Origin: Escherichia coli
GTDB taxonomy: Bacteria; Pseudomonadota; Gammaproteobacteria; Enterobacterales; Enterobacteriaceae
Assembly (NCBI RefSeq): GCF_003991155.1
Contig: NZ_CP031293.1
DNA: 64,000 nt
Strand: one strand, 5' to 3'
Shown here one piece after another: positions 1-16,200 of this stretch. Both the position numbers and the translations under genes were made by a program. Numbering within the stretch: the stretch's first letter is position 1; each line of letters opens with the position of its first letter. Below the pieces are notes generated by a model. It worked only from the letters and a program-made list of their open reading frames with translations. It was not told the DNA's origin and did not search any database.

Positions 1-1292
1 AGGTAAATATTAAAGTTCTCCATATCCATCACATTAGCGAACTGATAAGACGCATGAATGGTGTGAATGGTGTACGTCCCTTCATCATCAATCCAGCAGT
101 CGTTATCACAAACTACACCGCTGAATTCATCAATCTTATTGTGCGCGTAGATATAACCCAGCTCGAAACGTTTCCACAGCGCGTTAATCCCGGCAGTGAA
201 ATCTTTCTCATTATTAGCATCTAAATAGGCGGTATTAAGATTAACCACGACGCCATTTTCCGGATCCGTTTTCAGGCCATTCCAGGTCATGCTCATACCA
301 TAGCCGGTACGATCGGACTGATCGACAAAATTACCCTTGCTATCGGTATAACCATAAGCATTATTTACCACGTTCGCTTCCATCGCTGCGGAAACGGTGA
401 ATTCTTCTGTCGGCGACCAGGCAATTACCGGACGCAGATAAGCAACATTTTTCTGCTGCTCCATATCGCGTCCATGATAATTACCGTCATTATATAAAGA
501 TGTTCCGTCTTCAAGTAACGTGTTTAATTCAAAATACCAGTTATCAAGTTGTTTGCTGACGAGGAAATTACCGCCAGCGTTAGAACGCCCGCGGCCCTCT
601 TTCATCATATAGATATAACCGCTGCCATCGTCATAAAGATCGTTCGCAGTATTACCGGAATGTTCAACAAAGGTATCCTGATTCAGCGGGAACATATCGT
701 AGGCTTCAAAACGGCCTACTTTGACCTTCCAGTCGTTTTCTTTGCCAAAGAAGAAAACCGCATCATCGATATTTACTGAACCGTGCATATCCCCCAGCGG
801 TTGTGCGGAGAACCCGGCGAAATAGCCATTATCCAGTTTTCGCATACCATCAAAACCTAACAAAATACGACCATTGAGATTCCACTGTTCATTAGTGGGA
901 TCGCTATTCACATCAGCGTTGGTCATTGCCAGCAGGCCATGATTACTTTCCGCATCCATATTAAATTCTACGTCGCCGTAGATTTTTAAATCGCCATAAC
1001 CTGAGAGCAAAAGATTAGGTGAGGTGGAATTTTTCTTTGCAGATTCCGCCGTTGCCTGTCCATTTACCGGCGTATTGCCCTGGGCAGCCTTAATTTCGCG
1101 GATCTCAGCGGCTTGTTGTGTCTGCAGCTGTTTAACCTGGCTCTCTGCTTTTGCTGCCCGCATTTCTGCCGCTTCCAGGCGTTCTTCCAGCAATGCCATG
1201 CGTTGTTCCAGCGTTAAATGCTGTGTTTTTGCCATTCCGGTACTACATGCCAATAATAAACCGATGGCTAAAGATAATGTCGATTTTTTCAT
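1..1292 (-). CDS. Outer-membrane carbohydrate porin-like protein, 5' part only (runs off window start); signal peptide followed by an N-terminal coiled coil resembling the ScrY extension
   Basis: Minus-strand ATG at 1292..1290 with AGGGA Shine-Dalgarno upstream. Translation read by eye (MKKSTLSLAIGLLLACSTGMAKTQHLTLEQRMALLEERLEAAEMRAAK...) shows no stop before the window edge. Not in the ORF track because there is no in-window stop. Confidence 0.55.
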   Translation of the reverse strand, partial: MKKSTLSLAIGLLLACSTGMAKTQHLTLEQRMALLEERLEAAEMRAAKAESQVKQLQTQQAAEIREIKAAQGNTPVNGQATAESAKKNSTSPNLLLSGYGDLKIYGDVEFNMDAESNHGLLAMTNADVNSDPTNEQWNLNGRILLGFDGMRKLDNGYFAGFSAQPLGDMHGSVNIDDAVFFFGKENDWKVKVGRFEAYDMFPLNQDTFVEHSGNTANDLYDDGSGYIYMMKEGRGRSNAGGNFLVSKQLDNWYFELNTLLEDGTSLYNDGNYHGRDMEQQKNVAYLRPVIAWSPTEEFTVSAAMEANVVNNAYGYTDSKGNFVDQSDRTGYGMSMTWNGLKTDPENGVVVNLNTAYLDANNEKDFTAGINALWKRFELGYIYAHNKIDEFSGVVCDNDCWIDDEGTYTIHTIHASYQFANVMDMENFNIY

Positions 1293-1768
1293 TATTTACG
1301 TTCCCTGAAATAAAAGAGACCCTACGCTTTCCAAAAGGAATACGTATATAGAGAAATATAAGGTGTGCACTTTCGAATTTTTAATCCAACTTCAGCAGGC
1401 CGATGGATAGTATCCTGCTGCATAATATGAGTAAATCCGCTGATTTCCTGGAACGTGAGGAATATAACAATAGTGCCGTTTTTAACCAAATATCGTAAAA
1501 AATATTAGATATAATTCACGCTGACTCATAAGCCACAAATATAAATAACCTTGCTGCAAAACATGTGCGGCAGTTAAACATTCACAACATCATTAAATAA
1601 TGATTTTTTATTCACGGCATTTATTTTTCCCATCAATATGTGCCTTACACTGCAAAATTTATCCTTCACTCTGCCTTATATTGTCACGACTTCACGACAT
1701 ATCCGCGCTCATCACAAAACCGCCCCGCCGTTACAATTAACTATAATATTTTTTCATGGAATCCAATA

Positions 1769-2215
1769 ATGGCAGCACTTACTGCAAGCTGTATTGACCT
1801 GAATATTCAGGGCAATGGCGCTTATTCCGTTCTGAAGCAGTTGGCGACAATGGCGTTACAAAACGGTTTTATCACCGACTCACACCAGTTCCTGCAAACC
1901 CTGCTGCTGCGCGAAAAAATGCACTCCACGGGATTTGGTTCCGGTGTCGCCGTGCCGCACGGTAAAAGCGCCTGCGTTAAACAACCGTTCGTGTTATTCG
2001 CCCGCAAAACGCAGGCCATTGACTGGCAGGCCAGCGATGGCGAAGACGTCAATTGCTGGATCTGCCTCGGCGTGCCACAAAGTGGCGAAGAGGAACAGGT
2101 CAAAATCATCGGCACGCTGTGCCGCAAAATTATCCACCAGGATTTTATCGACCAACTGCGACAGGGCGACGCCGACCAGGTGCTTGCTTTGTTAAATCAA
2201 ACCCTCAGCTCATAA
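1769..2215 (+). CDS. frvA: PTS fructose-like EIIA component
   Basis: 148 aa from the internal ATG at 1769 of track ORF 1640..2215 (MAALTASCIDLN...); length and position match K-12 frvA at the head of frvABXR. Confidence 0.9.
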   Translation: MAALTASCIDLNIQGNGAYSVLKQLATMALQNGFITDSHQFLQTLLLREKMHSTGFGSGVAVPHGKSACVKQPFVLFARKTQAIDWQASDGEDVNCWICLGVPQSGEEEQVKIIGTLCRKIIHQDFIDQLRQGDADQVLALLNQTLSS

Positions 2216-2225
2216 GGACGTGGCG

Positions 2226-3677
2226 ATGGAGTCATCCTTACGTATTGTCGCGATCACCAACTGCCCCGCCGGGATCGCTCACACCTACATGGTGGCGGAA
2301 GCCCTGGAACAGAAAGCCCGTTCTCTCGGTCATACCATTAAAGTTGAAACTCAAGGATCCAACGGCGTCGAAAACCGCTTATCCAGCGAAGAGATTGCCG
2401 CTGCCGATTACGTGATTCTCGCTACCGGGCGTGGCCTGAGCGGTGATGATCGCGCGCGATTTGCCGGGAAAAAGGTTTATGAGATTGCCATCTCCCAGGC
2501 GCTGAAAAATATCGACCAGATTTTCAGTGAATTACCGACAAACTCACAACTTTTTGCCGCAGATAGCGGCGTGAAGCTCGGCAAGCAGGAAGTGCAAAGT
2601 GGCAGCGTAATGAGCCATCTGATGGCGGGTGTTTCTGCGGCGCTGCCGTTTGTCATCGGTGGCGGTATCCTGGTGGCGCTTGCCAACATGCTGGTGCAGT
2701 TCGGTTTGCCGTATACCGATATGTCGAAAGGTGCGCCGTCGTTTACCTGGGTGGTTGAATCCATCGGTTATCTCGGCTTCACCTTTATGATCCCCATCAT
2801 GGGCGCTTATATTGCCTCGTCGATTGCCGATAAACCCGCTTTCGCTCCGGCGTTTCTGGTTTGCTATCTGGCGAATGACAAAGCCCTGCTCGGCACCCAG
2901 TCTGGCGCGGGCTTCCTCGGCGCGGTGGTGCTGGGGCTGGCGATTGGCTATTTCGTCTTCTGGTTCCGTAAAGTGCGCCTTGGCAAAGCATTACAACCGC
3001 TGCTCGGTTCCATGCTGATCCCGTTCGTCACTCTGCTGGTTTTCGGCGTACTGACTTACTACGTTATCGGACCGGTGATGTCCGACCTCATGGGCGGGTT
3101 GCTGCACTTCCTGAACACCATTCCTCCGTCAATGAAGTTTGCGGCAGCGTTTTTGGTCGGTGCGATGCTGGCGTTCGATATGGGCGGCCCTATCAATAAA
3201 ACCGCCTGGTTCTTCTGCTTCTCACTGCTGGAAAAACACATTTACGACTGGTACGCCATCGTCGGCGTTGTCGCGCTGATGCCGCCCGTCGCGGCGGGTC
3301 TTGCGACGTTCATTGCGCCCAAACTGTTTACCCGACAGGAAAAAGAGGCTGCCAGTAGTGCCATTGTGGTCGGTGCCACGGTCGCGACCGAACCGGCTAT
3401 TCCTTACGCTCTGGCGGCACCACTGCCAATGATCACCGCCAATACGCTGGCGGGCGGCATTACCGGCGTGCTGGTGATCGCTTTCGGAATCAAACGACTG
3501 GCACCTGGTTTGGGTATCTTTGACCCGCTGATCGGCCTGATGTCACCGGTAGGTTCGTTTTATCTGGTGCTGGCGATTGGCCTCGCGCTGAACATTTCAT
3601 TCATTATCGTCCTGAAAGGATTATGGTTACGCCGCAAAGCCAAAGCTGCGCAACAGGAGCTTGTCCATGAACATTGA
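2226..3677 (+). CDS. frvB: PTS fructose-like EIIBC component
   Basis: Track ORF 2220..3677 (GTG start); ATG at 2226 gives 483 aa. EIIB domain followed by multi-TM EIIC, immediately after frvA. Confidence 0.9.
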   Translation: MESSLRIVAITNCPAGIAHTYMVAEALEQKARSLGHTIKVETQGSNGVENRLSSEEIAAADYVILATGRGLSGDDRARFAGKKVYEIAISQALKNIDQIFSELPTNSQLFAADSGVKLGKQEVQSGSVMSHLMAGVSAALPFVIGGGILVALANMLVQFGLPYTDMSKGAPSFTWVVESIGYLGFTFMIPIMGAYIASSIADKPAFAPAFLVCYLANDKALLGTQSGAGFLGAVVLGLAIGYFVFWFRKVRLGKALQPLLGSMLIPFVTLLVFGVLTYYVIGPVMSDLMGGLLHFLNTIPPSMKFAAAFLVGAMLAFDMGGPINKTAWFFCFSLLEKHIYDWYAIVGVVALMPPVAAGLATFIAPKLFTRQEKEAASSAIVVGATVATEPAIPYALAAPLPMITANTLAGGITGVLVIAFGIKRLAPGLGIFDPLIGLMSPVGSFYLVLAIGLALNISFIIVLKGLWLRRKAKAAQQELVHEH

Positions 3678-4737
3678 GTTACTGCAACAGTTGTGCGAAG
3701 CCAGCGCCGTCAGCGGCGATGAACAGGAAGTTCGCGACATTCTGATAAACACGCTGGAACCCTGCGTGAATGAGATCACCTTCGATGGTCTGGGCAGCTT
3801 TGTTACCCGTAAGGGGAATAAAGGGCCGAAAGTTGCCGTTGTCGGGCATATGGATGAAGTCGGCTTTATGGTCACCCACATCGACGAGAGCGGTTTTCTG
3901 CGTTTTACCACCATTGGCGGCTGGTGGAATCAGTCGATGCTCAATCACCGGGTAACCATACGCACACACAAGGGAGTGAAAATCCCTGGTGTAATTGGCT
4001 CCGTCGCCCCACATGCGTTAACCGAAAAGCAAAAGCAACAACCGCTGTCATTTGATGAAATGTTCATTGATATTGGCGCGAACAGTCGCGAAGAGGTGGA
4101 AAAACGCGGCGTGGAAATTGGCGATTTTATTAGCCCGGAAGCCAATTTTGCCTGCTGGGGCGAAGATAAAGTGGTCGGCAAGGCGCTGGATAACCGCATC
4201 GGCTGCGCAATGATGGTCGAGCTACTACAGACAGTAAATAACCCCGAAATTACGCTTTATGGCGTTGGCAGTGTGGAAGAAGAAGTTGGGCTACGCGGGG
4301 CACAAACCTCGGCTGAACACATTAAACCGGATGTGGTGATCGTGCTGGATACCGCTGTCGCGGGCGATGTTCCAGGCATTGATAACATTAAATATCCGCT
4401 GAAACTGGGCCAGGGGCCGGGGCTGATGCTGTTTGACAAGCGCTACTTCCCCAACCAGAAACTGGTAGCTGCGTTAAAAAACTGTGCCGCACATAACGAT
4501 TTACCGCTGCAATGTTCCACCATGAAAACCGGAGCGACGGATGGCGGGCGCTACAACGTGATGGGCGGCGGGCGTCCAGTTGTCGCGCTGTGTCTGCCAA
4601 CGCGTTATCTGCACGCCAATAGCGGTATGATTTCAAAAGCCGATTACGATGCTCTGCTCACGTTGATAAGGGATTTTCTGACCACCTTAACCGCGGAGAA
4701 AGTCAACGCGTTTAGCCAGTTCCGTCAGGTGAGCTAA
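3667..4737 (+). CDS. frvX: M42-family aminopeptidase/endoglucanase-like protein
   Basis: Track ORF 3661..4737; overlaps the frvB stop; about 356 aa; third gene of the frv operon. Confidence 0.88.
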   Translation: MNIELLQQLCEASAVSGDEQEVRDILINTLEPCVNEITFDGLGSFVTRKGNKGPKVAVVGHMDEVGFMVTHIDESGFLRFTTIGGWWNQSMLNHRVTIRTHKGVKIPGVIGSVAPHALTEKQKQQPLSFDEMFIDIGANSREEVEKRGVEIGDFISPEANFACWGEDKVVGKALDNRIGCAMMVELLQTVNNPEITLYGVGSVEEEVGLRGAQTSAEHIKPDVVIVLDTAVAGDVPGIDNIKYPLKLGQGPGLMLFDKRYFPNQKLVAALKNCAAHNDLPLQCSTMKTGATDGGRYNVMGGGRPVVALCLPTRYLHANSGMISKADYDALLTLIRDFLTTLTAEKVNAFSQFRQVS

Positions 4738-7784: not shown

Positions 7785-10091
7785 CTACATTCCATAACGT
7801 TCAGAAATAGCAGCATGCTTCTCTTCATTCGCCCCGGCTTCTTTGGCAAGACGCCACCAGCACAACGGATGTTCCCAGTCAGCGGTCAATTCGTGCAAGG
7901 TCTTATCGATATCACCTTTAGAAACTGAACGCGGCGCGCTGATAACAAAGTAGAACGCGGGCAGCGGCTGTGCATCTTCTCCCTGCTGGCTGTCCGTTAA
8001 CGTATAGTCCTCGTTACTGTTGCTCCAGTAGTACCAGTTTCGTTCACGGAGCGCCTCACGGAAGGCATTAAACTGTTCTTCACCAGGCATGACACCTTCG
8101 CAGAACCAGGACTCGCCGTACTCAGTCGGGATAATGGTTTGCAGGCAGGCATAAAGTGGCGTGAAATTCTTCCGTTCTTCCTCATCCTCTGGTTGGGTGT
8201 TCAATATTTCCGCATCGAATACCACAACTTCATCAACATGTTGCGGATAATCGGTCCGGTAAGTTGGCTCAATGATCCTTGCTGTTACCGGCCCAATACG
8301 TTGAGCATAGTAATAGCGGTATTCATAATTTTCCCGGAAGCGAATGTTTAGCAGTCCCCATTTTTCGTCGATAAAACCTTCACCTTCCGTAAGTTCGATT
8401 TCCAGTTCAGCTGCAATAGCACGAACCAATTCCCATTGTTGCAGGATGCTGGCGGTCGCCATGATATCCCACTGGATATTACGAATATCTTCTTCACGGC
8501 TAATCATCAGTTGCTGCAATTGTTGTAAATAATCCAGCTGTCGATCCCAGGCTTCCTGTTTTTGTGCTGCCCAGGAGCACATGCGATAAACGCCGATCCA
8601 CTCACGCCCTTTTTCGTTTTGCAGCAACTGGTGCCCAATCGACTCGAGTTCACTCCAGTCTTCCTGTTGGTTGATCACTCGCGCACGGAACCACAAGGCC
8701 ATATGTAGCAGCCCCGCCTGTTCATACTGCTTCGCCAGGTGCTCAATGGTTTGCAGATCGTCACGGTGGAGCAATAAATCCAACAGATCGAAGCAAAGAC
8801 CATTATCTTCCTGGATGTGGCTTTCGACGTAGCGTTGCAGAAGTTCAATCGACTCATCAATCGCATTACAGGCGTTTAACGCATTGACCAGTTTGCCCAG
8901 CAATTCCGCATCATCTGGCGCGTTCAGGTAAGCGCGGCGGAATGTTTCGACGTCTTTTTCTGGATCTGGCTGCGTTTCTTCATCGCTATTTTCAGGTATT
9001 TCTACAACCGGACGAGCAAGCAACTCTGCTTCTTTGGCGGCGATTTTTTCACTCAGTTCGAGAAACTCACGATCAACCCCCAGTAACACGCGTAATTTTG
9101 GCATGTGTCGCTGGGCCAGTTTCATCGCTATTTTGGCAACCCAGACGGATTCACGCTCCAGCGCCAGGGTAATTTGCAGTTTCGCCAGATCAACCACTTT
9201 GCGGTGCGCTCCGGCCTGCGAGCGGTGCTCCAGTATTTTTTGGATGATGCGCGCCAGTTGCCAGTTGTTTCTTTGTGGATGACGGGGAAGTAACACAGTA
9301 ATGATTTTCAGCCATGACCCCCATGAATGGGGAGTCAGATCTGACCAACGCGGTAATTCCTCCCAGACTTCTTCGTCCTGCCCGCATAACGCCATGATGT
9401 ACAGTTTTTTGAGGTGATTACTAATGCGGTCGCGGCCCCAGTAATCATTGGCTTCTGTCAGCTCATCAATCAGTATGCGTGCTTCATCATAACGCTGAAG
9501 TTCAATCAGAATATCGGCACGAGTATAAAGTAATGCATCAATATCATCTTCCCCGGCTGCTTTAACTGCGTCGATTTGTCGATCCAGATAAGCCAGTGCC
9601 TCCTCTATTCTTTTGGAATCTATCAGTGCACTGGCATATTCAGTGGACAAACACTGAAAACAGCTCCAGGTCGGATCAATCCGCGCGATGGTTTCTTCAC
9701 ATACCGCCATACGTTCATTCGCCCAGCCAGGTGCATCAATATTTTCGTAGCAGGCGGATAAATCCTGGGTAACGCAGATAGATTGTGGGCAATCTTTTGT
9801 CTCTTCCCGGTGCGCTTTTTCAAACAGCGCTACCACGTCTGGCAGCACCTTTTCACCTTCTTCATAGTTAGTCAGGCGATGACGCATTTCCCAGTGACCA
9901 ATAAATATTTCCAGCCACGGATTTTTTGCCACCTGGGTAAGTGCTTTTACTTCAGGTAACAGCGAATCGCACTTTTCCATTTGCAGGTGCATAACGCCTT
10001 CCGAATAATCATCGATAAGTTGCGGAATATACTCCTGCCCGGCATCGCGTAACTCCTTAGTATATTTGTGATACCACTCCCATATATCCAT
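7785..10091 (-). CDS. 768-aa alpha-helical, acidic, Trp-rich protein of unknown function; downstream partner of the HtpG paralog
   Basis: Long ORF with E. coli-like composition; its ATG (10091..10089) lies 1 nt after the upstream gene's TAA (10095..10093), indicating translational coupling. No motif recognised by eye. Confidence 0.75.
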   Translation of the reverse strand: MDIWEWYHKYTKELRDAGQEYIPQLIDDYSEGVMHLQMEKCDSLLPEVKALTQVAKNPWLEIFIGHWEMRHRLTNYEEGEKVLPDVVALFEKAHREETKDCPQSICVTQDLSACYENIDAPGWANERMAVCEETIARIDPTWSCFQCLSTEYASALIDSKRIEEALAYLDRQIDAVKAAGEDDIDALLYTRADILIELQRYDEARILIDELTEANDYWGRDRISNHLKKLYIMALCGQDEEVWEELPRWSDLTPHSWGSWLKIITVLLPRHPQRNNWQLARIIQKILEHRSQAGAHRKVVDLAKLQITLALERESVWVAKIAMKLAQRHMPKLRVLLGVDREFLELSEKIAAKEAELLARPVVEIPENSDEETQPDPEKDVETFRRAYLNAPDDAELLGKLVNALNACNAIDESIELLQRYVESHIQEDNGLCFDLLDLLLHRDDLQTIEHLAKQYEQAGLLHMALWFRARVINQQEDWSELESIGHQLLQNEKGREWIGVYRMCSWAAQKQEAWDRQLDYLQQLQQLMISREEDIRNIQWDIMATASILQQWELVRAIAAELEIELTEGEGFIDEKWGLLNIRFRENYEYRYYYAQRIGPVTARIIEPTYRTDYPQHVDEVVVFDAEILNTQPEDEEERKNFTPLYACLQTIIPTEYGESWFCEGVMPGEEQFNAFREALRERNWYYWSNSNEDYTLTDSQQGEDAQPLPAFYFVISAPRSVSKGDIDKTLHELTADWEHPLCWWRLAKEAGANEEKHAAISERYGM

Positions 10092-10092
10092 T

Positions 10093-11928
10093 TTATTTTC
10101 CTTGATTAATTAAGACAGGAATAACCTGAGTAAAATCTTCCAGTGCCTGGTGTAAATCCCAATGCTGTTCTTTATTACCGCTGGAGCACAAAATCACTTT
10201 CAGCGATTTTAATAAGCGTAATGCCGCTGCGGGCTGTTGCTGGTGTTGTAATGCCGTCACCAGTTGCATGATGCAAGGGTTATTAAGGTTGATGTATAAA
10301 CTTGAGGTTTTCGTTTTTTGGATTTGTGAAGTAAATTGCCGCGCCAGCATTAACGCTGCGGTGCTGATGCGTTTATCTGCGTCATCCTGTTCGAGAATTT
10401 GTTTTAATTCTGCTTCGCGGTCTGGCGTAACCACTAACGGTAAAACGGCGGGTTCGAAGCGGGAGATAATTAATTGCTCGCCATCGCAGAGATGCTCTTC
10501 CAGATAAGCTACCTGCTCTTCGGGTAATTCCGCCAGGCTGAACAACTGCTCATTACCTGTTTGCGTACCGACTTCGACAATCCGGCAGTGATATAACAGC
10601 GCCCAGCGACGTAAAAATGGCACGACGGCATAGCGATCGCCACGGGCAACGGGCCGTTGCAGAATGTGGAACAACATCTCTTCAAAACCGCCGTCGCGGC
10701 TTAACAGAATATGAATGCTGTTATTAACGCGTAAATCCTTCGCCAGCAACGCCCCTTTTGACGTTGGCACCTGCAAGCGATCTTTGAGCAAATCAAACAG
10801 ACGGTCATCACATAATGCCGCACCGAGCAACGCTTCGTTGTGGCGCATTAATACACGCCGCCAGATTTCTGGCTGATTTTGTGCGAGATCGGACAAACCA
10901 GAAATCAGCGCCTCTTTTAACGCCTCCTGCACCGCAACCCAGGTTTCGTCCCGCTGGAGATCTTCCCGGCTCGCCGTAGGCGTTAGTTTCGATGACTCAA
11001 TCACGCCGCCAATAAATCCGGCCCAGGGAGGTAACAACTCACGCGCTTCATCATCCAGTAACATACCGCGCAAAAACAGCGACAGGTTGCGGTTATCGCT
11101 GGTGCCGTAGGTTGCGCCATCCTGAATCCATAAAATCCCAACCGCGTCGCTCATCCCCACGGGCACCACCGGAATGGTGCAAATCGGTTCGAAGGAGGAT
11201 TCAAACTGGGCGGCAAAGGCGAGATTTTTACGCTGTACCAGCGCGCGGTGCATGGTTACGCCTTCGGGGGCAACTTCACGCCACGGTGGTTGAAGTTTAT
11301 TTACCGGCTCGCTGGCATCGCCGACATAGACCGGTTCGTGCAGCAATATACAGTAGCGGGAAAGAACGCGGTTCAGCAAATTGTTACTCGCCAGATGGCT
11401 GTACTCTTCTTTGAGCGTCAGAATCACCTGCGTACCCGTTTCCGAGGACTGATGCGGCGTAACGGTATATTTTTGCCCGTCGGTAGAGTGGTATTTCCAG
11501 CTCTGATCCGGCGTTTGCCAGGATGTGGTCAACACCGTGACCTCTTTCGCCAACACAAAGGCCGACAAAAAACCGAGGCCGAACATACCAATTAAACCGG
11601 TGTTGTCATCCTGCTGGCGCAACATTCGGGTATAACCCACGCCTACTGTCGCCAGGAAGCCGTGAATTTCACTTTCTGTCAGTCCAGCGCCAGTATCGCT
11701 AATAGTGATAGTGGACTTCGCCACGTCTGCCACCACACGAATCGCGTTATCCTTTGGCGCATCGGGCTGCTCAATCCTGCGGCGAACGATCGCATCATGG
11801 CCGTTCTGCACCAGCTCGCGCACGGCAACCACGGGAGTGGAGTAAAGATGCTTACTGAGCACCTCAATTAAGCCGTTTAAATTAACTTCTGTAGAATATG
11901 AACTACCAGGTAACTGTAATGTACTCAT
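10093..11928 (-). CDS. HtpG/Hsp90-paralog GHKL (Bergerat-fold) ATPase, 611 aa
   Basis: N-terminal motifs read directly: ELVQNGHDA (N-box, 11791..11817), ISDTGAGL (G1 box), LIGMFGLGFLSAF (G2 box), colinear with the HtpG N-domain (ELISNASDA / ISDNGVGM / LIGQFGVGFYSAF). Confidence 0.8.
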   Translation of the reverse strand: MSTLQLPGSSYSTEVNLNGLIEVLSKHLYSTPVVAVRELVQNGHDAIVRRRIEQPDAPKDNAIRVVADVAKSTITISDTGAGLTESEIHGFLATVGVGYTRMLRQQDDNTGLIGMFGLGFLSAFVLAKEVTVLTTSWQTPDQSWKYHSTDGQKYTVTPHQSSETGTQVILTLKEEYSHLASNNLLNRVLSRYCILLHEPVYVGDASEPVNKLQPPWREVAPEGVTMHRALVQRKNLAFAAQFESSFEPICTIPVVPVGMSDAVGILWIQDGATYGTSDNRNLSLFLRGMLLDDEARELLPPWAGFIGGVIESSKLTPTASREDLQRDETWVAVQEALKEALISGLSDLAQNQPEIWRRVLMRHNEALLGAALCDDRLFDLLKDRLQVPTSKGALLAKDLRVNNSIHILLSRDGGFEEMLFHILQRPVARGDRYAVVPFLRRWALLYHCRIVEVGTQTGNEQLFSLAELPEEQVAYLEEHLCDGEQLIISRFEPAVLPLVVTPDREAELKQILEQDDADKRISTAALMLARQFTSQIQKTKTSSLYINLNNPCIMQLVTALQHQQQPAAALRLLKSLKVILCSSGNKEQHWDLHQALEDFTQVIPVLINQGK

Positions 11929-13267: not shown

Positions 13268-16200
13268 ATGCAGGTCAGCAGAAGGCAGTTCTTTAAGATC
13301 TGCGCTGGCGGTATGGCAGGCACCACGGCAGCGGCACTGGGTTTTGCACCCAGCGTAGCACTCGCGGAAACCCGGCAGTATAAACTGCTGCGCACCCGCG
13401 AAACCCGTAATACCTGCACCTATTGTTCCGTAGGCTGTGGGCTGTTGATGTACAGCCTCGGTGACGGAGCAAAAAACGCCAAAGCATCTATCTTCCATAT
13501 CGAAGGCGATCCGGATCACCCGGTCAACCGCGGTGCACTTTGTCCGAAAGGCGCTGGCCTGGTGGATTTCATCCACTCCGAAAGCCGCCTGAAGTTTCCG
13601 GAATACCGTGCGCCAGGTTCTGATAAATGGCAACAAATCAGTTGGGAAGAGGCGTTTGATCGCATCGCCAAACTGATGAAAGAAGACCGCGATGCGAACT
13701 ACATTGCGCAAAACGCCGAAGGCGTGACTGTTAACCGCTGGCTCTCCACCGGGATGCTGTGTGCTTCCGCGTCGAGTAACGAAACCGGCTATTTAACGCA
13801 AAAATTCTCCCGCGCGCTGGGGATGCTCGCGGTCGACAACCAGGCGCGTGTCTGACACGGACCAACGGTAGCAAGTCTTGCTCCAACATTTGGTCGCGGT
13901 GCGATGACCAACCACTGGGTCGACATCAAGAACGCCAACCTCGTCGTGGTGATGGGCGGTAACGCCGCTGAAGCTCACCCGGTCGGGTTCCGCTGGGCGA
14001 TGGAAGCCAAAATTCACAACGGCGCGAAGCTGATTGTGATCGATCCTCGCTTTACACGTACGGCGGCGGTGGCTGACTACTATGCCCCTATTCGTTCCGG
14101 TACTGACATTGCTTTCCTGTCAGGCGTATTGCTGTACCTGCTGAACAATGAAAAATTCAACCGCGAATACACCGAAGCCTATACCAACGCCAGCCTGATC
14201 GTGCGTGAGGATTACGGCTTTGAAGATGGCCTGTTCACCGGCTACGACGCGGAAAAACGCAAGTACGATAAATCCAGCTGGACCTACGAGCTGGACGAAA
14301 ACGGCTTCGCCAAACGCGATACCACGCTGCAACATCCGCGCTGCGTGTGGAACTTGCTGAAACAGCACGTTTCCCGTTATACGCCAGATGTGGTTGAAAA
14401 CATCTGCGGTACGCCAAAAGACGCGTTCCTGAAAGTCTGCGAATACATCGCCGAAACCAGTGCTCACGATAAAACTGCCTCGTTCCTTTACGCGCTCGGC
14501 TGGACGCAACACTCCATTGGTGCGCAAAACATTCGTACGATGGCGATGATCCAGCTGCTGCTCGGCAACATGGGGATGGCAGGCGGCGGCGTTAACGCCC
14601 TGCGCGGTCACTCCAATATTCAGGGGCTGACCGACCTGGGGCTACTGTCGCAGAGTCTGCCAGGTTACATGACGTTGCCAAGCGAGAAGCAGACCGATCT
14701 GCAAACTTACCTCGCTGCCAACACGCCAAAACCACTGCTGGAAGGCCAGGTCAACTACTGGGGCAACTACCCGAAATTCTTCGTCTCTATGATGAAGGCC
14801 TTCTTTGGTGATAAAGCGACGGCGGAAAATAGCTGGGGCTTTGACTGGTTGCCGAAGTGGGATAAAGGCTACGACGTCCTGCAATACTTCGAGATGATGA
14901 AAGAGGGCAAGGTCAATGGCTATATCTGCCAGGGCTTTAACCCTGTTGCCTCATTCCCGAACAAAAACAAAGTGATCGGCTGTCTGTCGAAGCTGAAATT
15001 CCTCGTGACTATCGACCCGCTGAACACTGAAACCTCTAACTTCTGGCAGAACCACGGTGAGCTGAACGAAGTTGACTCGTCGAAGATCCAGACCGAAGTG
15101 TTCCGTCTGCCATCGACCTGCTTTGCGGAAGAGAACGGTTCAATCGTCAACTCTGGTCGCTGGTTGCAGTGGCACTGGAAAGGTGCGGACGCCCCGGGGA
15201 TTGCGCTGACTGACGGCGAGATCCTCTCCGGTATCTTCCTGCGCTTGCGCAAGATGTATGCCGAACAGGGTGGCGCGAACCCGGACCAGGTGCTGAACAT
15301 GACCTGGAACTACGCCATTCCGCATGAGCCATCTTCAGAAGAAGTGGCGATGGAGAGCAACGGCAAAGCGCTGGCCGATATTACCGACCCGGCAACCGGT
15401 GCGGTTATCGTCAAGAAAGGCCAACAACTTAGCTCGTTCGCCCAACTGCGCGATGACGGTACAACCTCCTGTGGCTGCTGGATTTTCGCCGGTAGCTGGA
15501 CGCCGGAAGGCAACCAGATGGCGCGTCGTGATAACGCCGATCCGTCTGGCCTCGGTAACACGCTGGGCTGGGCATGGGCATGGCCGCTTAACCGCCGCAT
15601 TCTGTATAACCGCGCCTCCGCAGATCCGCAGGGTAACCCATGGGATCCGAAGCGTCAGTTGCTGAAATGGGACGGCACTAAGTGGACCGGCTGGGATATT
15701 CCGGATTACAGCGCAGCGCCTCCGGGCAGCGGCGTAGGGCCGTTTATCATGCAGCAGGAAGGCATGGGACGTCTGTTTGCCCTCGATAAGATGGCGGAAG
15801 GTCCGTTCCCGGAACACTACGAGCCGTTTGAAACGCCGCTGGGAACTAACCCGCTGCATCCAAACGTTATCTCGAACCCGGCTGCGCGAATCTTTAAAGA
15901 CGACGCCGAAGCATTGGGTAAAGCCGATAAGTTCCCGTATGTCGGAACCACCTATCGTCTGACCGAGCACTTCCACTACTGGACCAAACACGCGCTGTTG
16001 AACGCGATTTTGCAACCAGAGCAGTTTGTGGAAATCGGGGAGTCGCTGGCGAATAAACTTGGCATTGCCCAGGGCGATACTGTGAAAGTCTCCTCCAACC
16101 GTGGCTATATCAAAGCCAAAGCGGTAGTGACCAAACGTATTCGCACGCTGAAAGCAAACGGCAAAGATATCGATACCATCGGTATTCCGATTCACTGGGG

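Follow-up and report, generated by a model that had tools for sequence, protein, structure and literature searches.

At one edge of the window, a 64,000-nucleotide stretch of Escherichia coli DNA (assembly GCF_003991155.1, contig NZ_CP031293.1), a minus-strand porin gene lies divergently beside frvA. Its position raises the questions of which porin family it belongs to, and whether it is a partner of the cryptic frv PTS or a neighbour by descent.

The porin gene and its protein

To identify the gene, we translated window positions 1-1292 on the minus strand. The translation gave 430 codons without a stop, beginning with MKKSTLSLAIGLLLACSTGMAK and followed by LEQRMALLEERLEAAEMRAAKAESQVKQLQTQQ, and the remaining two minus-strand frames contain many stops over the same interval. 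The ORF start and heptad-like segment described in an earlier note on this DNA therefore survive computed translation, as does its remark that the gene is truncated. The window edge leaves the 5' 93% of the gene inside, and a genome that matches 17,300 bases of the window with 0 mismatches completes it with 34 more codons to a protein of 464 aa with the C-terminal end RVRFKYFF. The full protein is WP_000749944.1, named "carbohydrate porin" in RefSeq; the gene is thus already known, being annotated there, with public family and domain architecture. A 2016 paper on O157:H7 (PMC4809568) names the serotype's chromosomal rafY homologue "rafY2", which we take to be the same gene, as the window porin is 97.8% identical in O157:H7 genomes.

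Comparison with Pfam revealed a match to Porin_8 (RafY, PF16966), with E = 2e-143 for the truncated and 3e-154 for the full porin, confirming the porin-like, beta-rich body that had been proposed. The match scored 513.9 bits, where the cutoff is 25, and residues 104-464 span profile positions 1-372 of 372. The porin shares 78-79% amino acid identity over 97-100% of its length with plasmid RafY, the reference being the porin that follows genes for a LacI regulator, an alpha-galactosidase, an MFS permease and a GH32 enzyme (rafR-rafA-rafB-rafD) on IncF plasmids. LamB (PF02264) gave no match at E <= 1 for the porin and none at E <= 0.1 for 30 relatives, and no specific NCBIfam model matched. The family profile retrieved no ScrY or LamB chain from the PDB at E <= 10. 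PDB sequence searches with the porin and with the profile returned chance or coiled-coil matches only, indicating that sequence comparison identifies no relative of solved structure. A low-confidence AF2 model has 16 strands, and its nearest structures are 16-stranded trimeric porins. The window porin is a member of the RafY family and not of the LamB/ScrY family, so that the likeness to ScrY drawn in the earlier note holds for the N-terminal module and does not extend to the barrel.

The predicted signal peptide consists of a basic n-region, a hydrophobic core and small residues at -3/-1, with predicted cleavage after G-M-A, and A21 is invariant among 30 homologues. The motif LLAC was also considered as a lipoprotein signal and rejected. 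Cys16 is replaced by V, A or T in relatives, making a lipobox unlikely, and relatives retain both A21 and the A-x-A-type cleavage region. These features point to residues 1-21 as the signal peptide.

The sucrose porin ScrY carries an N-terminal coiled-coil extension. In the window porin, one heptad register places L28, M32, L35, L39, A42, A46, A49, V53 and L56 at a/d. This register is hydrophobic at 9 of 12 a/d positions over residues 28-56, compared with at most 5 of 12-13 in the other registers, and E29, R31, E36, R38, L39, E43, R45, A46, A49 and E50 are invariant in 30 homologues. Sugarporin_N (PF11471) scored 15.3-15.5 bits in the window porin, below its cutoff of 25.7; it matched 30 of 30 relatives at E <= 0.1 (best 3.9e-7), several of them with a precomputed PF11471 annotation. 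The AF2 model forms a helix at residues 28-70. The single register, the PF11471 matches and this helix uphold the proposed N-terminal coiled coil. The module is kept in enterobacterial RafY relatives and missing from Vibrio and Aeromonas relatives, and the Nissle allele has exactly 7 residues, one heptad, fewer in this segment. If the same module has indeed been attached to LamB-type as well as RafY-type barrels, which are unrelated, it might serve a general purpose in the periplasm. The linker between coiled coil and barrel has poorly conserved alignment columns, with pLDDT < 50 at residues 59-97.

Table 1. Features at the porin end of the window (residue numbers refer to the porin)
Feature	Position	Strand	Basis
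RafY-family porin gene ("rafY2"), codons 1-430 of 464	1..1292	minus	open frame, identical genome, Pfam Porin_8
Beta-barrel domain, residues 104-430 (extends to 464 outside the window)	1..983	minus	
Low-complexity linker, coiled coil to barrel, residues ~61-103	984..1112	minus	alignment, pLDDT
Periplasmic N-terminal coiled-coil module, Sugarporin_N-like, residues ~28-60	1113..1211	minus	heptads, conservation, AF2
Predicted Sec signal peptide MKKSTLSLAIGLLLACSTGMA, residues 1-21	1230..1292	minus	sequence features
Divergent intergenic region porin-frvA, 476 nt	1293..1768	.	annotation of identical genome
Porin ribosome-binding region CAGGGAAC within conserved block CTTTATTTCAAGGAA	1300..1307	minus	orthologue conservation
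Predicted porin promoter	1407..1435	minus	comparative alignment
CRP-like site TGTTA-N6-TCACG	1454..1469	minus	orthologue conservation
frvA-proximal segment, sole intergenic part common to K-12	1634..1768	plus	blastn
frvA, first gene of frvABXR, neighbour outside the porin unit	1769..2215	plus	identical-genome annotation, K-12 alignment

Upstream region and predicted promoter

Analysis of the intergenic region with Rfam at E <= 1 detected no RNA family. A generic promoter and terminator scan was uninformative, with 3 promoter-like sites against 4.9 expected, and its sigma-70 search did not pick the proposed porin promoter; this was found through comparative alignment. It consists of the -35 hexamer TTTACT (1430-1435) and the -10 hexamer TACTAT (1407-1412) with a spacer of 17 nt. 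Hexamers and spacing are shared upstream of the orthologues in Citrobacter, Kluyvera, Pseudocitrobacter, Enterobacter ENT03, RIT691 and Superficieibacter, and the ribosome-binding block is conserved among orthologues of about 8 genera. Transcription would start near 1400, giving a putative 5' UTR of ~107 nt.

The centre of the CRP-like site lies ~61.5 nt before the predicted transcription start, which corresponds to Class I geometry. Across genera, the orthologues carry it as TGTTAyyTysCTCACG at a fixed distance to the -35 hexamer, and frv-less B2 strains keep it unchanged. The site has two mismatches to the consensus, and chance matches of equal quality occur about once per 2.5 kb, so that the case for it rests on conservation. 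The porin promoter is probably under cAMP-CRP control through this Class-I-type site. In a blastn comparison, the K-12 intergenic region could be aligned to the window solely from position 1634 onward, with 82% identity when the frvA start is included and ~73% over non-coding sequence. This frvA-proximal segment presumably holds the frv promoter. The porin promoter block is separate from it and is kept whatever the upstream neighbour.

The rhaM-frvA junction and its history

In K-12, rhaM adjoins frvA at a distance of 300 bp with no porin between them, in agreement with the neighbour named in the earlier note, and the porin gene is missing from the K-12 genome, so it is not an ordinary conserved K-12 gene. 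The suspicion of a strain-variable junction was also correct. Among 5426 complete E. coli genomes, porin and frv occur together in ~25%, frv alone in 52%, the porin alone in 22% and neither in 1%. In counts, frvAB is present in 4191 genomes and the porin with an intact 464-codon frame in 2557; the porin adjoins frvA in 1378, the K-12-type junction (frv without porin) is found in 2814, and ~1180 carry the porin without the frv operon, including Nissle 1917 and Ecol_AZ146. Porin-only strains such as Nissle 1917, taken here as B2, have the order rhaM-porin-truncated yiiG-fdhD and no frv. In some genomes, the porin gene is disrupted by an IS.

The two haplotypes do not differ by a simple indel, since ~1775 nt in the porin haplotype stand against 164 unrelated nt in K-12, and no IS or direct-repeat scar was seen at the junction between them. 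The frvA-proximal 135-190 nt beside the junction are only 73-82% identical between the haplotypes, suggesting that both are old. In the identical E. coli genome, no rafR, rafA, rafB or rafD occurs closer than 15 kb to the porin, and linkage of the E. coli porin to rafA or rafB was not found.

A scan of genome contigs recovered at least 56 family loci, which represent a sample. In Citrobacter, Kluyvera, Pseudocitrobacter and Klebsiella, the orthologues are convergent to rhaM, with inserted genes in the gap in Pseudocitrobacter and K. grimontii. In Klebsiella, rafR-rafA-rafB lie directly upstream of the porin; raf linkage is also present in Enterobacter ENT03, and more distant family members, among the matches listed, have a permease and a GH32 gene upstream. 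The raf-less orphan arrangement has likewise been stable in Citrobacter, Kluyvera and Pseudocitrobacter. Where orthologous loci include frv, azlCD and a regulator gene (of the HTH/cupin type in Kluyvera and RIT691) usually lie between it and the porin, and no frv was found near the Citrobacter and Klebsiella orthologues. The dN/dS of the porin is 0.05-0.06 between E. coli alleles (dS ~0.18-0.21) and 0.04-0.06 against other genera, and the sole indel seen is the deletion of exactly one heptad. The porin is under purifying selection.

The synteny points to the porin as an old resident of the rhaM end in the Escherichia-Citrobacter-Kluyvera-Klebsiella group, which in Klebsiella closes a chromosomal rafR-rafA-rafB-porin cluster. 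The ancestral E. coli order was probably rhaM / porin / frvABXR / yiiG, with later loss of the porin in K-12-type strains and of frv in B2 strains; such losses would make the adjacency to frvA historical rather than functional.

The divergent arrangement across 476 nt, shared by about a quarter of E. coli genomes and by Enterobacter sp. ENT03, together with a distance of at most 3 kb between porin and frvRXBA in Kluyvera genomosp. 1 and RIT691, makes it tempting to regard the porin as the dedicated channel of the cryptic frv PTS, one divergent unit co-regulated by FrvR. This pairing, raised in the earlier note, is extremely unlikely in view of the four presence/absence combinations, with 2814 frv-only and ~1180 porin-only genomes; conserved co-occurrence with adjacency was found neither among the 5426 E. 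coli genomes nor among the orthologue loci. The intervening azlCD and regulator genes, the frv-less loci of Citrobacter and Klebsiella, and a porin promoter block that does not overlap the frvA-proximal segment also argue against it, and a fructose-like monosaccharide PTS would not obviously need a channel of oligosaccharide size. Adjacency to rhaM, kept in Escherichia, Citrobacter, Kluyvera and Klebsiella and, with insertions, in Pseudocitrobacter, would fit an accessory porin of the rhamnose regulon that admits rhamnose-containing oligosaccharides. We consider this very improbable, because the two genes converge on a common hairpin terminator and so cannot be co-transcribed, and other genes separate them in Pseudocitrobacter and K. 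grimontii. Moreover, K-12-type strains use rhamnose without the porin, and family members elsewhere, among the matches listed, reside in raf or GH32 clusters, not in rha clusters.

The missing rafRAB in E. coli, present upstream of the Klebsiella orthologue, and the loss of the porin from about half of the genomes, with IS disruption in some, could also mark a non-functional relic, the terminal gene left over from a chromosomal raf operon that has otherwise been lost, silent and drifting toward loss itself. Such decay is quite improbable for a gene with an intact frame in 2557 genomes, the low dN/dS and single heptad-sized indel given above, a promoter, CRP-like block and ribosome-binding site kept across genera, and an orphan arrangement that is stable in three other genera. 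Very probably, the feature in the window is a chromosomal orphan rafY-type glycoporin gene with its own promoter, and its adjacency to frvA is historical.

Proposed function and comparison with known systems

RafY-family glycoporins are characterised by a wide channel for raffinose, sucrose and maltodextrins. PMC4827864 and PMC4809568 cite the role of RafY as a glycoporin. The expression, localisation and substrates of the window porin are extrapolated from plasmid RafY and Klebsiella GlyP, as our search turned up no experimental work on the chromosomal gene of E. coli. The orphan glycoporin would be transcribed from its own conserved promoter, probably in a cAMP-CRP-dependent manner, and exported by its predicted Sec signal peptide. 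Residues ~100-464 would fold into an outer-membrane barrel, probably of 16 strands, with a C-terminal Phe beta-signal. The protein most likely assembles into trimers, in which the three N-terminal helices (~28-60) would form a parallel periplasmic coiled coil. By homology to RafY (79%), it may act as a wide diffusion channel through which di- and oligosaccharides cross the outer membrane at low concentration, with raffinose-family sugars, sucrose and maltodextrins as candidate substrates.

The tempting link to the frv PTS thus appears to be wrong, a correction of modest practical value. K-12 is a poor reference for the rhaM-frvA locus, since an additional, presumably wide-channel porin is found in roughly half of the sequenced E. 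coli, among them BL21, O157:H7, Nissle 1917 and B2 clinical strains. In these strains, the porin may matter for outer-membrane permeability, carbohydrate competition in the gut, and sensitivity to phages and colicins.

Comparison of the window porin with plasmid RafY (pRSD2, IncF; PF16966, TCDB 1.B.15) indicated that they belong to the same family, with 79% identity over the full 464 aa and the same layout of signal peptide, coiled coil, linker and barrel; both have the conserved Cys pair (C395/C399) and end in RFKYFF. In contrast to rafY, the window copy is encoded on the chromosome, with rhaM and frvA as its neighbours and no linked rafR/A/B/D, and has an unrelated upstream region except for the ribosome-binding site. 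The likeness to ScrY (PF02264 + PF11471) consists in the N-terminal, Sugarporin_N-type periplasmic heptad extension, and both are outer-membrane sugar channels tied to oligosaccharide or sucrose catabolism. The 16-stranded trimeric porins DcaP (Acinetobacter baumannii, PDB 6eus), OprP and VhChiP have only 10-12% identity to the window porin, and their likeness to it comes from the low-confidence model; their substrates differ (dicarboxylates, phosphate and chitosugars).

The RafY-family porin GlyP of Klebsiella pneumoniae is, like the window porin, a chromosomal member of the family in enterobacteria. GlyP is the last gene in a glyR-permease-hydrolase-porin operon under LacI-type repression, whereas the E. 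coli gene is a single gene under a predicted promoter of its own. GlyP was found to serve as an alternative nutrient porin with conditional fitness effects (bioRxiv 10.64898/2026.03.29.715108). It affects fitness in cells that have lost the major porins, so the E. coli porin may matter likewise. A rather doubtful extension is that RafY2 is a conditionally useful wide "backup" porin whose roughly 50:50 presence and absence is kept by opposing selection; scavenging of nutrients and oligosaccharides in the gut would favour keeping it, and entry of antibiotics, colicins or phages would favour its loss. This backup role would parallel that of GlyP in porin-deficient Klebsiella pneumoniae.

Reading frame and family of the porin gene

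Computed translation of window positions 1–1292 on the minus strand yielded 430 stop-free codons, with the frame leaving the window at its edge, in agreement with the by-eye translation of the earlier note; the remaining two frames contain many stops. The protein begins with MKKSTLSLAIGLLLACSTGMAK, followed by TQHLTLEQRMALLEERLEAAEMRAAKAESQVKQLQTQQ. E. coli 2016C-3878 (NZ_CP029747), which shows 0 mismatches to the window across 17,300 bases, carries the full gene of 1395 nt encoding 464 aa (WP_000749944.1, annotated "carbohydrate porin"), with rhaM convergent on one side and frvA divergent on the other. The gene is already known, being annotated in thousands of genomes and belonging to a characterised family. 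Residues 104–464 match Pfam Porin_8 ("porin-like glycoporin RafY") over the entire profile (E = 3e-154, 514 bits, with the cutoff of 25 bits). The Pfam search found no match to the LamB/ScrY family (PF02264) in the porin or in 30 relatives, and PDB sequence searches with the porin and with the family profile found no porin chain.

The porin is 78–79% identical to an IncF-plasmid porin encoded 3' of genes for a LacI regulator, an alpha-galactosidase, an MFS permease and a GH32 hydrolase. This porin of conjugative IncF plasmids, the classical raffinose-operon RafY, is the closest characterised relative of the window porin. Two publications present RafY as a glycoporin whose substrates are raffinose and other oligosaccharides (PMC4827864; PMC4809568). 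O157:H7 lacks rafRABD but has a chromosomal rafY homologue annotated rafY2 (PMC4809568); the porin gene in O157:H7 genomes is 97.8% identical to the window copy, and we take rafY2 to be the same gene. Once derepressed, the Klebsiella RafY-family porin GlyP acts as an alternative nutrient porin (recent preprint, bioRxiv 10.64898/2026.03.29.715108), and lactulose reportedly induces a Salmonella homologue; both reports support the general functional picture by analogy and are not evidence on the window porin itself.

Haplotypes at the rhaM-frvA junction

Comparison with K-12 MG1655, in which rhaM is followed by 300 bp and then frvA, with no porin, confirmed the suspicion that this junction is strain-variable. 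Among 5426 complete E. coli genomes, with a feature counted when at least 80% covered, the porin gene was present in 2557, frvAB in 4191, the adjacent porin and frvA in 1378 and the K-12-type rhaM-frvA junction in 2814, frequencies that describe a database biased to clinical isolates. The counts are self-consistent (1378 + 2814 = 4192, with frvAB at 4191) and imply that about 25% of the genomes carry both porin and frv, 52% frv alone, 22% the porin alone and 1% neither of them. Porin-only strains such as Nissle 1917 and Ecol_AZ146 show the order rhaM, porin, truncated yiiG, fdhD. Their homology to the window spans positions 1–1751, indicating that the frv operon was deleted from just 5' of the frvA ATG into yiiG, with the porin promoter region left intact. 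In B2-type genomes (loci L068 and L069, 4228–4803), frvABXR and the 5' part of yiiG are deleted, with the breakpoint about 18 nt 5' of the frvA ATG, and a DUF3829 pseudogene remains. Strain HS30-1 has lost both porin and frv through an IS1-mediated event.

The K-12 haplotype has 164 nt without counterpart where the porin haplotype has about 1775 nt. The non-coding, frvA-proximal 135–190 nt (window 1580–1768) are only 73–82% identical between the two haplotypes, against 96–97% for the rha and frv coding sequences on either side. A clean deletion in K-12 was rejected in view of the unmatched nucleotides and the diverged frvA-proximal sequence. These identities suggest either an old split between the haplotypes or unusually fast evolution of the frv promoter region.

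Among the matches listed, orthologues (70–85% identical) lie convergent to rhaM in several Citrobacter species (including C. rodentium), Kluyvera, Pseudocitrobacter and Klebsiella, usually with an HTH_3/cupin regulator gene and azlCD upstream. Klebsiella sp. B345 and K. oxytoca carry rafR-rafA-rafB between the regulator gene and the porin. In Kluyvera genomosp. 1 and in strain RIT691, frvRXBA is on the far side of azlCD from the porin; Enterobacter sp. ENT03 has frvA and the porin in divergent orientation, with rafRAB after the porin. More distant relatives (54–60% identical) are preceded by a LacY-like permease and a GH32 hydrolase, and a Buttiauxella relative by an ABC transporter with GH13 and GH130 genes. 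The proposed pairing of the porin with the cryptic frv PTS is contradicted by both this synteny and the E. coli presence/absence data. What is stable is the link of the porin to the rhaM end of the region and to oligosaccharide-utilisation genes. For the direct porin-frvA adjacency in E. coli, the best explanation is that azlCD and the regulator gene, which lay in between, were lost.

Other features were observed at or near the locus. Two genes, encoding a TPR-containing protein and a GHKL/Hsp90-like ATPase, separate yiiG and fdhD, immediate neighbours in K-12, and count as the second strain-variable insertion of the window. They are possibly a defence-type pair; PADLOC gave only weak N-terminal TmtA/REase-like matches for the ATPase. 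Outside the window, in the locus of the window-identical genome (L001), the REP/BIME array of the rhaA-rhaD spacer (13432–13709) has fewer repeat copies than K-12, a difference of about 180 nt, and the cpxA-yiiM interval holds an IS621 (IS110-family) transposase gene (3560–4540).

Upstream region and selection

The porin upstream regions are otherwise divergent across genera, yet contain several common elements. The CRP-like site, at about -61.5, would correspond to a Class I arrangement, with a predicted 5' UTR of about 107 nt. By chance, an equally good CRP-like match is expected about once per 2.5 kb, and the argument for this site therefore rests on cross-genus conservation. The frvA-proximal sequence in common with K-12 (window 1634–1768) lies clear of the CRP-like/promoter-like block, and no Rfam family matched in the porin-frvA intergenic region.

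Features of the porin locus and protein
Feature	Coordinates	Strand	Remark
Signal peptide	porin residues 1–21		typical Sec signal
Coiled coil	porin residues 28–56		single heptad register
Porin-frvA intergenic region	window 1293–1768		476 nt; frvA start at 1769
RBS block CTTTATTTCAAGGAA	window 1300–1307		common to orthologue upstream regions
-10-like TAnTnT	window 1407–1412		spacer 16–17 nt from -35-like
-35-like TTTACn	window 1430–1435		18 nt downstream of CRP-like block
CRP-like block TGTTAyyTysCTCACG (TGTTA-N6-TCACG)	window 1454–1469		CRP consensus matched 8/10
TPR-containing protein gene	window 7785–10091	minus	768 aa
GHKL/Hsp90-like ATPase gene	window 10093–11928	minus	611 aa

The dN/dS of the porin is 0.05–0.06 between E. 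coli alleles (dS 0.18–0.21), 0.04–0.06 versus Citrobacter rodentium, Kluyvera and Klebsiella, and 0.14 versus plasmid rafY. The gene is under strong purifying selection, which opposes the view that it is a decaying relic. On the least ordinary reading, which we consider unlikely, the presence or absence of this extra wide-channel porin would be a polymorphism under conditional selection, with effects on permeability and gut fitness as in Klebsiella.

Barrel and N-terminal module

An AlphaFold2 model from 30 sequences contained a helix at residues 28–70 and 16 long strands at pLDDT of about 70–87. The strand count, which agrees with the TCDB prediction, is tentative because the model is weak overall (pLDDT 59.6, pTM 0.60). 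The C-terminus is ...RFKYFF, which we take to be a typical outer-membrane beta-signal. A Cys-x3-Cys pair (C395/C399, VCDNDCW; window 98–112), nearly invariant among RafY-family members, maps to a loop that the model predicts with low confidence (residues 391–400, pLDDT below 50) and is probably a loop disulfide. A lipoprotein reading was rejected because Cys16 is not conserved.

The a/d positions of the coiled coil are occupied by L28, M32, L35, L39, A42, A46, A49, V53 and L56, and the charged residues E29, R31, E36, R38, E43, R45 and E50 are invariant across 30 homologues, the most divergent at 64% identity. Pfam Sugarporin_N, which represents the periplasmic extension of ScrY type, scored only 15.3 bits in the window porin (cutoff 25.7) and was matched by 30/30 relatives at E values of at most 0.1 (best 3.9e-7). 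The Nissle 1917 allele (L069 2501–3874; 457 aa, otherwise intact) lacks exactly seven residues of the coiled coil, one heptad at about R31–E37 (window about 1182–1202), with the register kept. The module is optional within Porin_8: it is present in Proteus and Moellerella members, and the signal peptide leads directly to the barrel in those of Vibrio, Aeromonas, Gilliamella/Orbaceae and some Enterobacter and Cedecea. Of the earlier description, the porin with an N-terminal coiled coil of ScrY type stands; the barrel is RafY-type by Pfam and not LamB/ScrY-type. RafY-family members without and with the extension parallel LamB, which has no extension, and ScrY, which has one.
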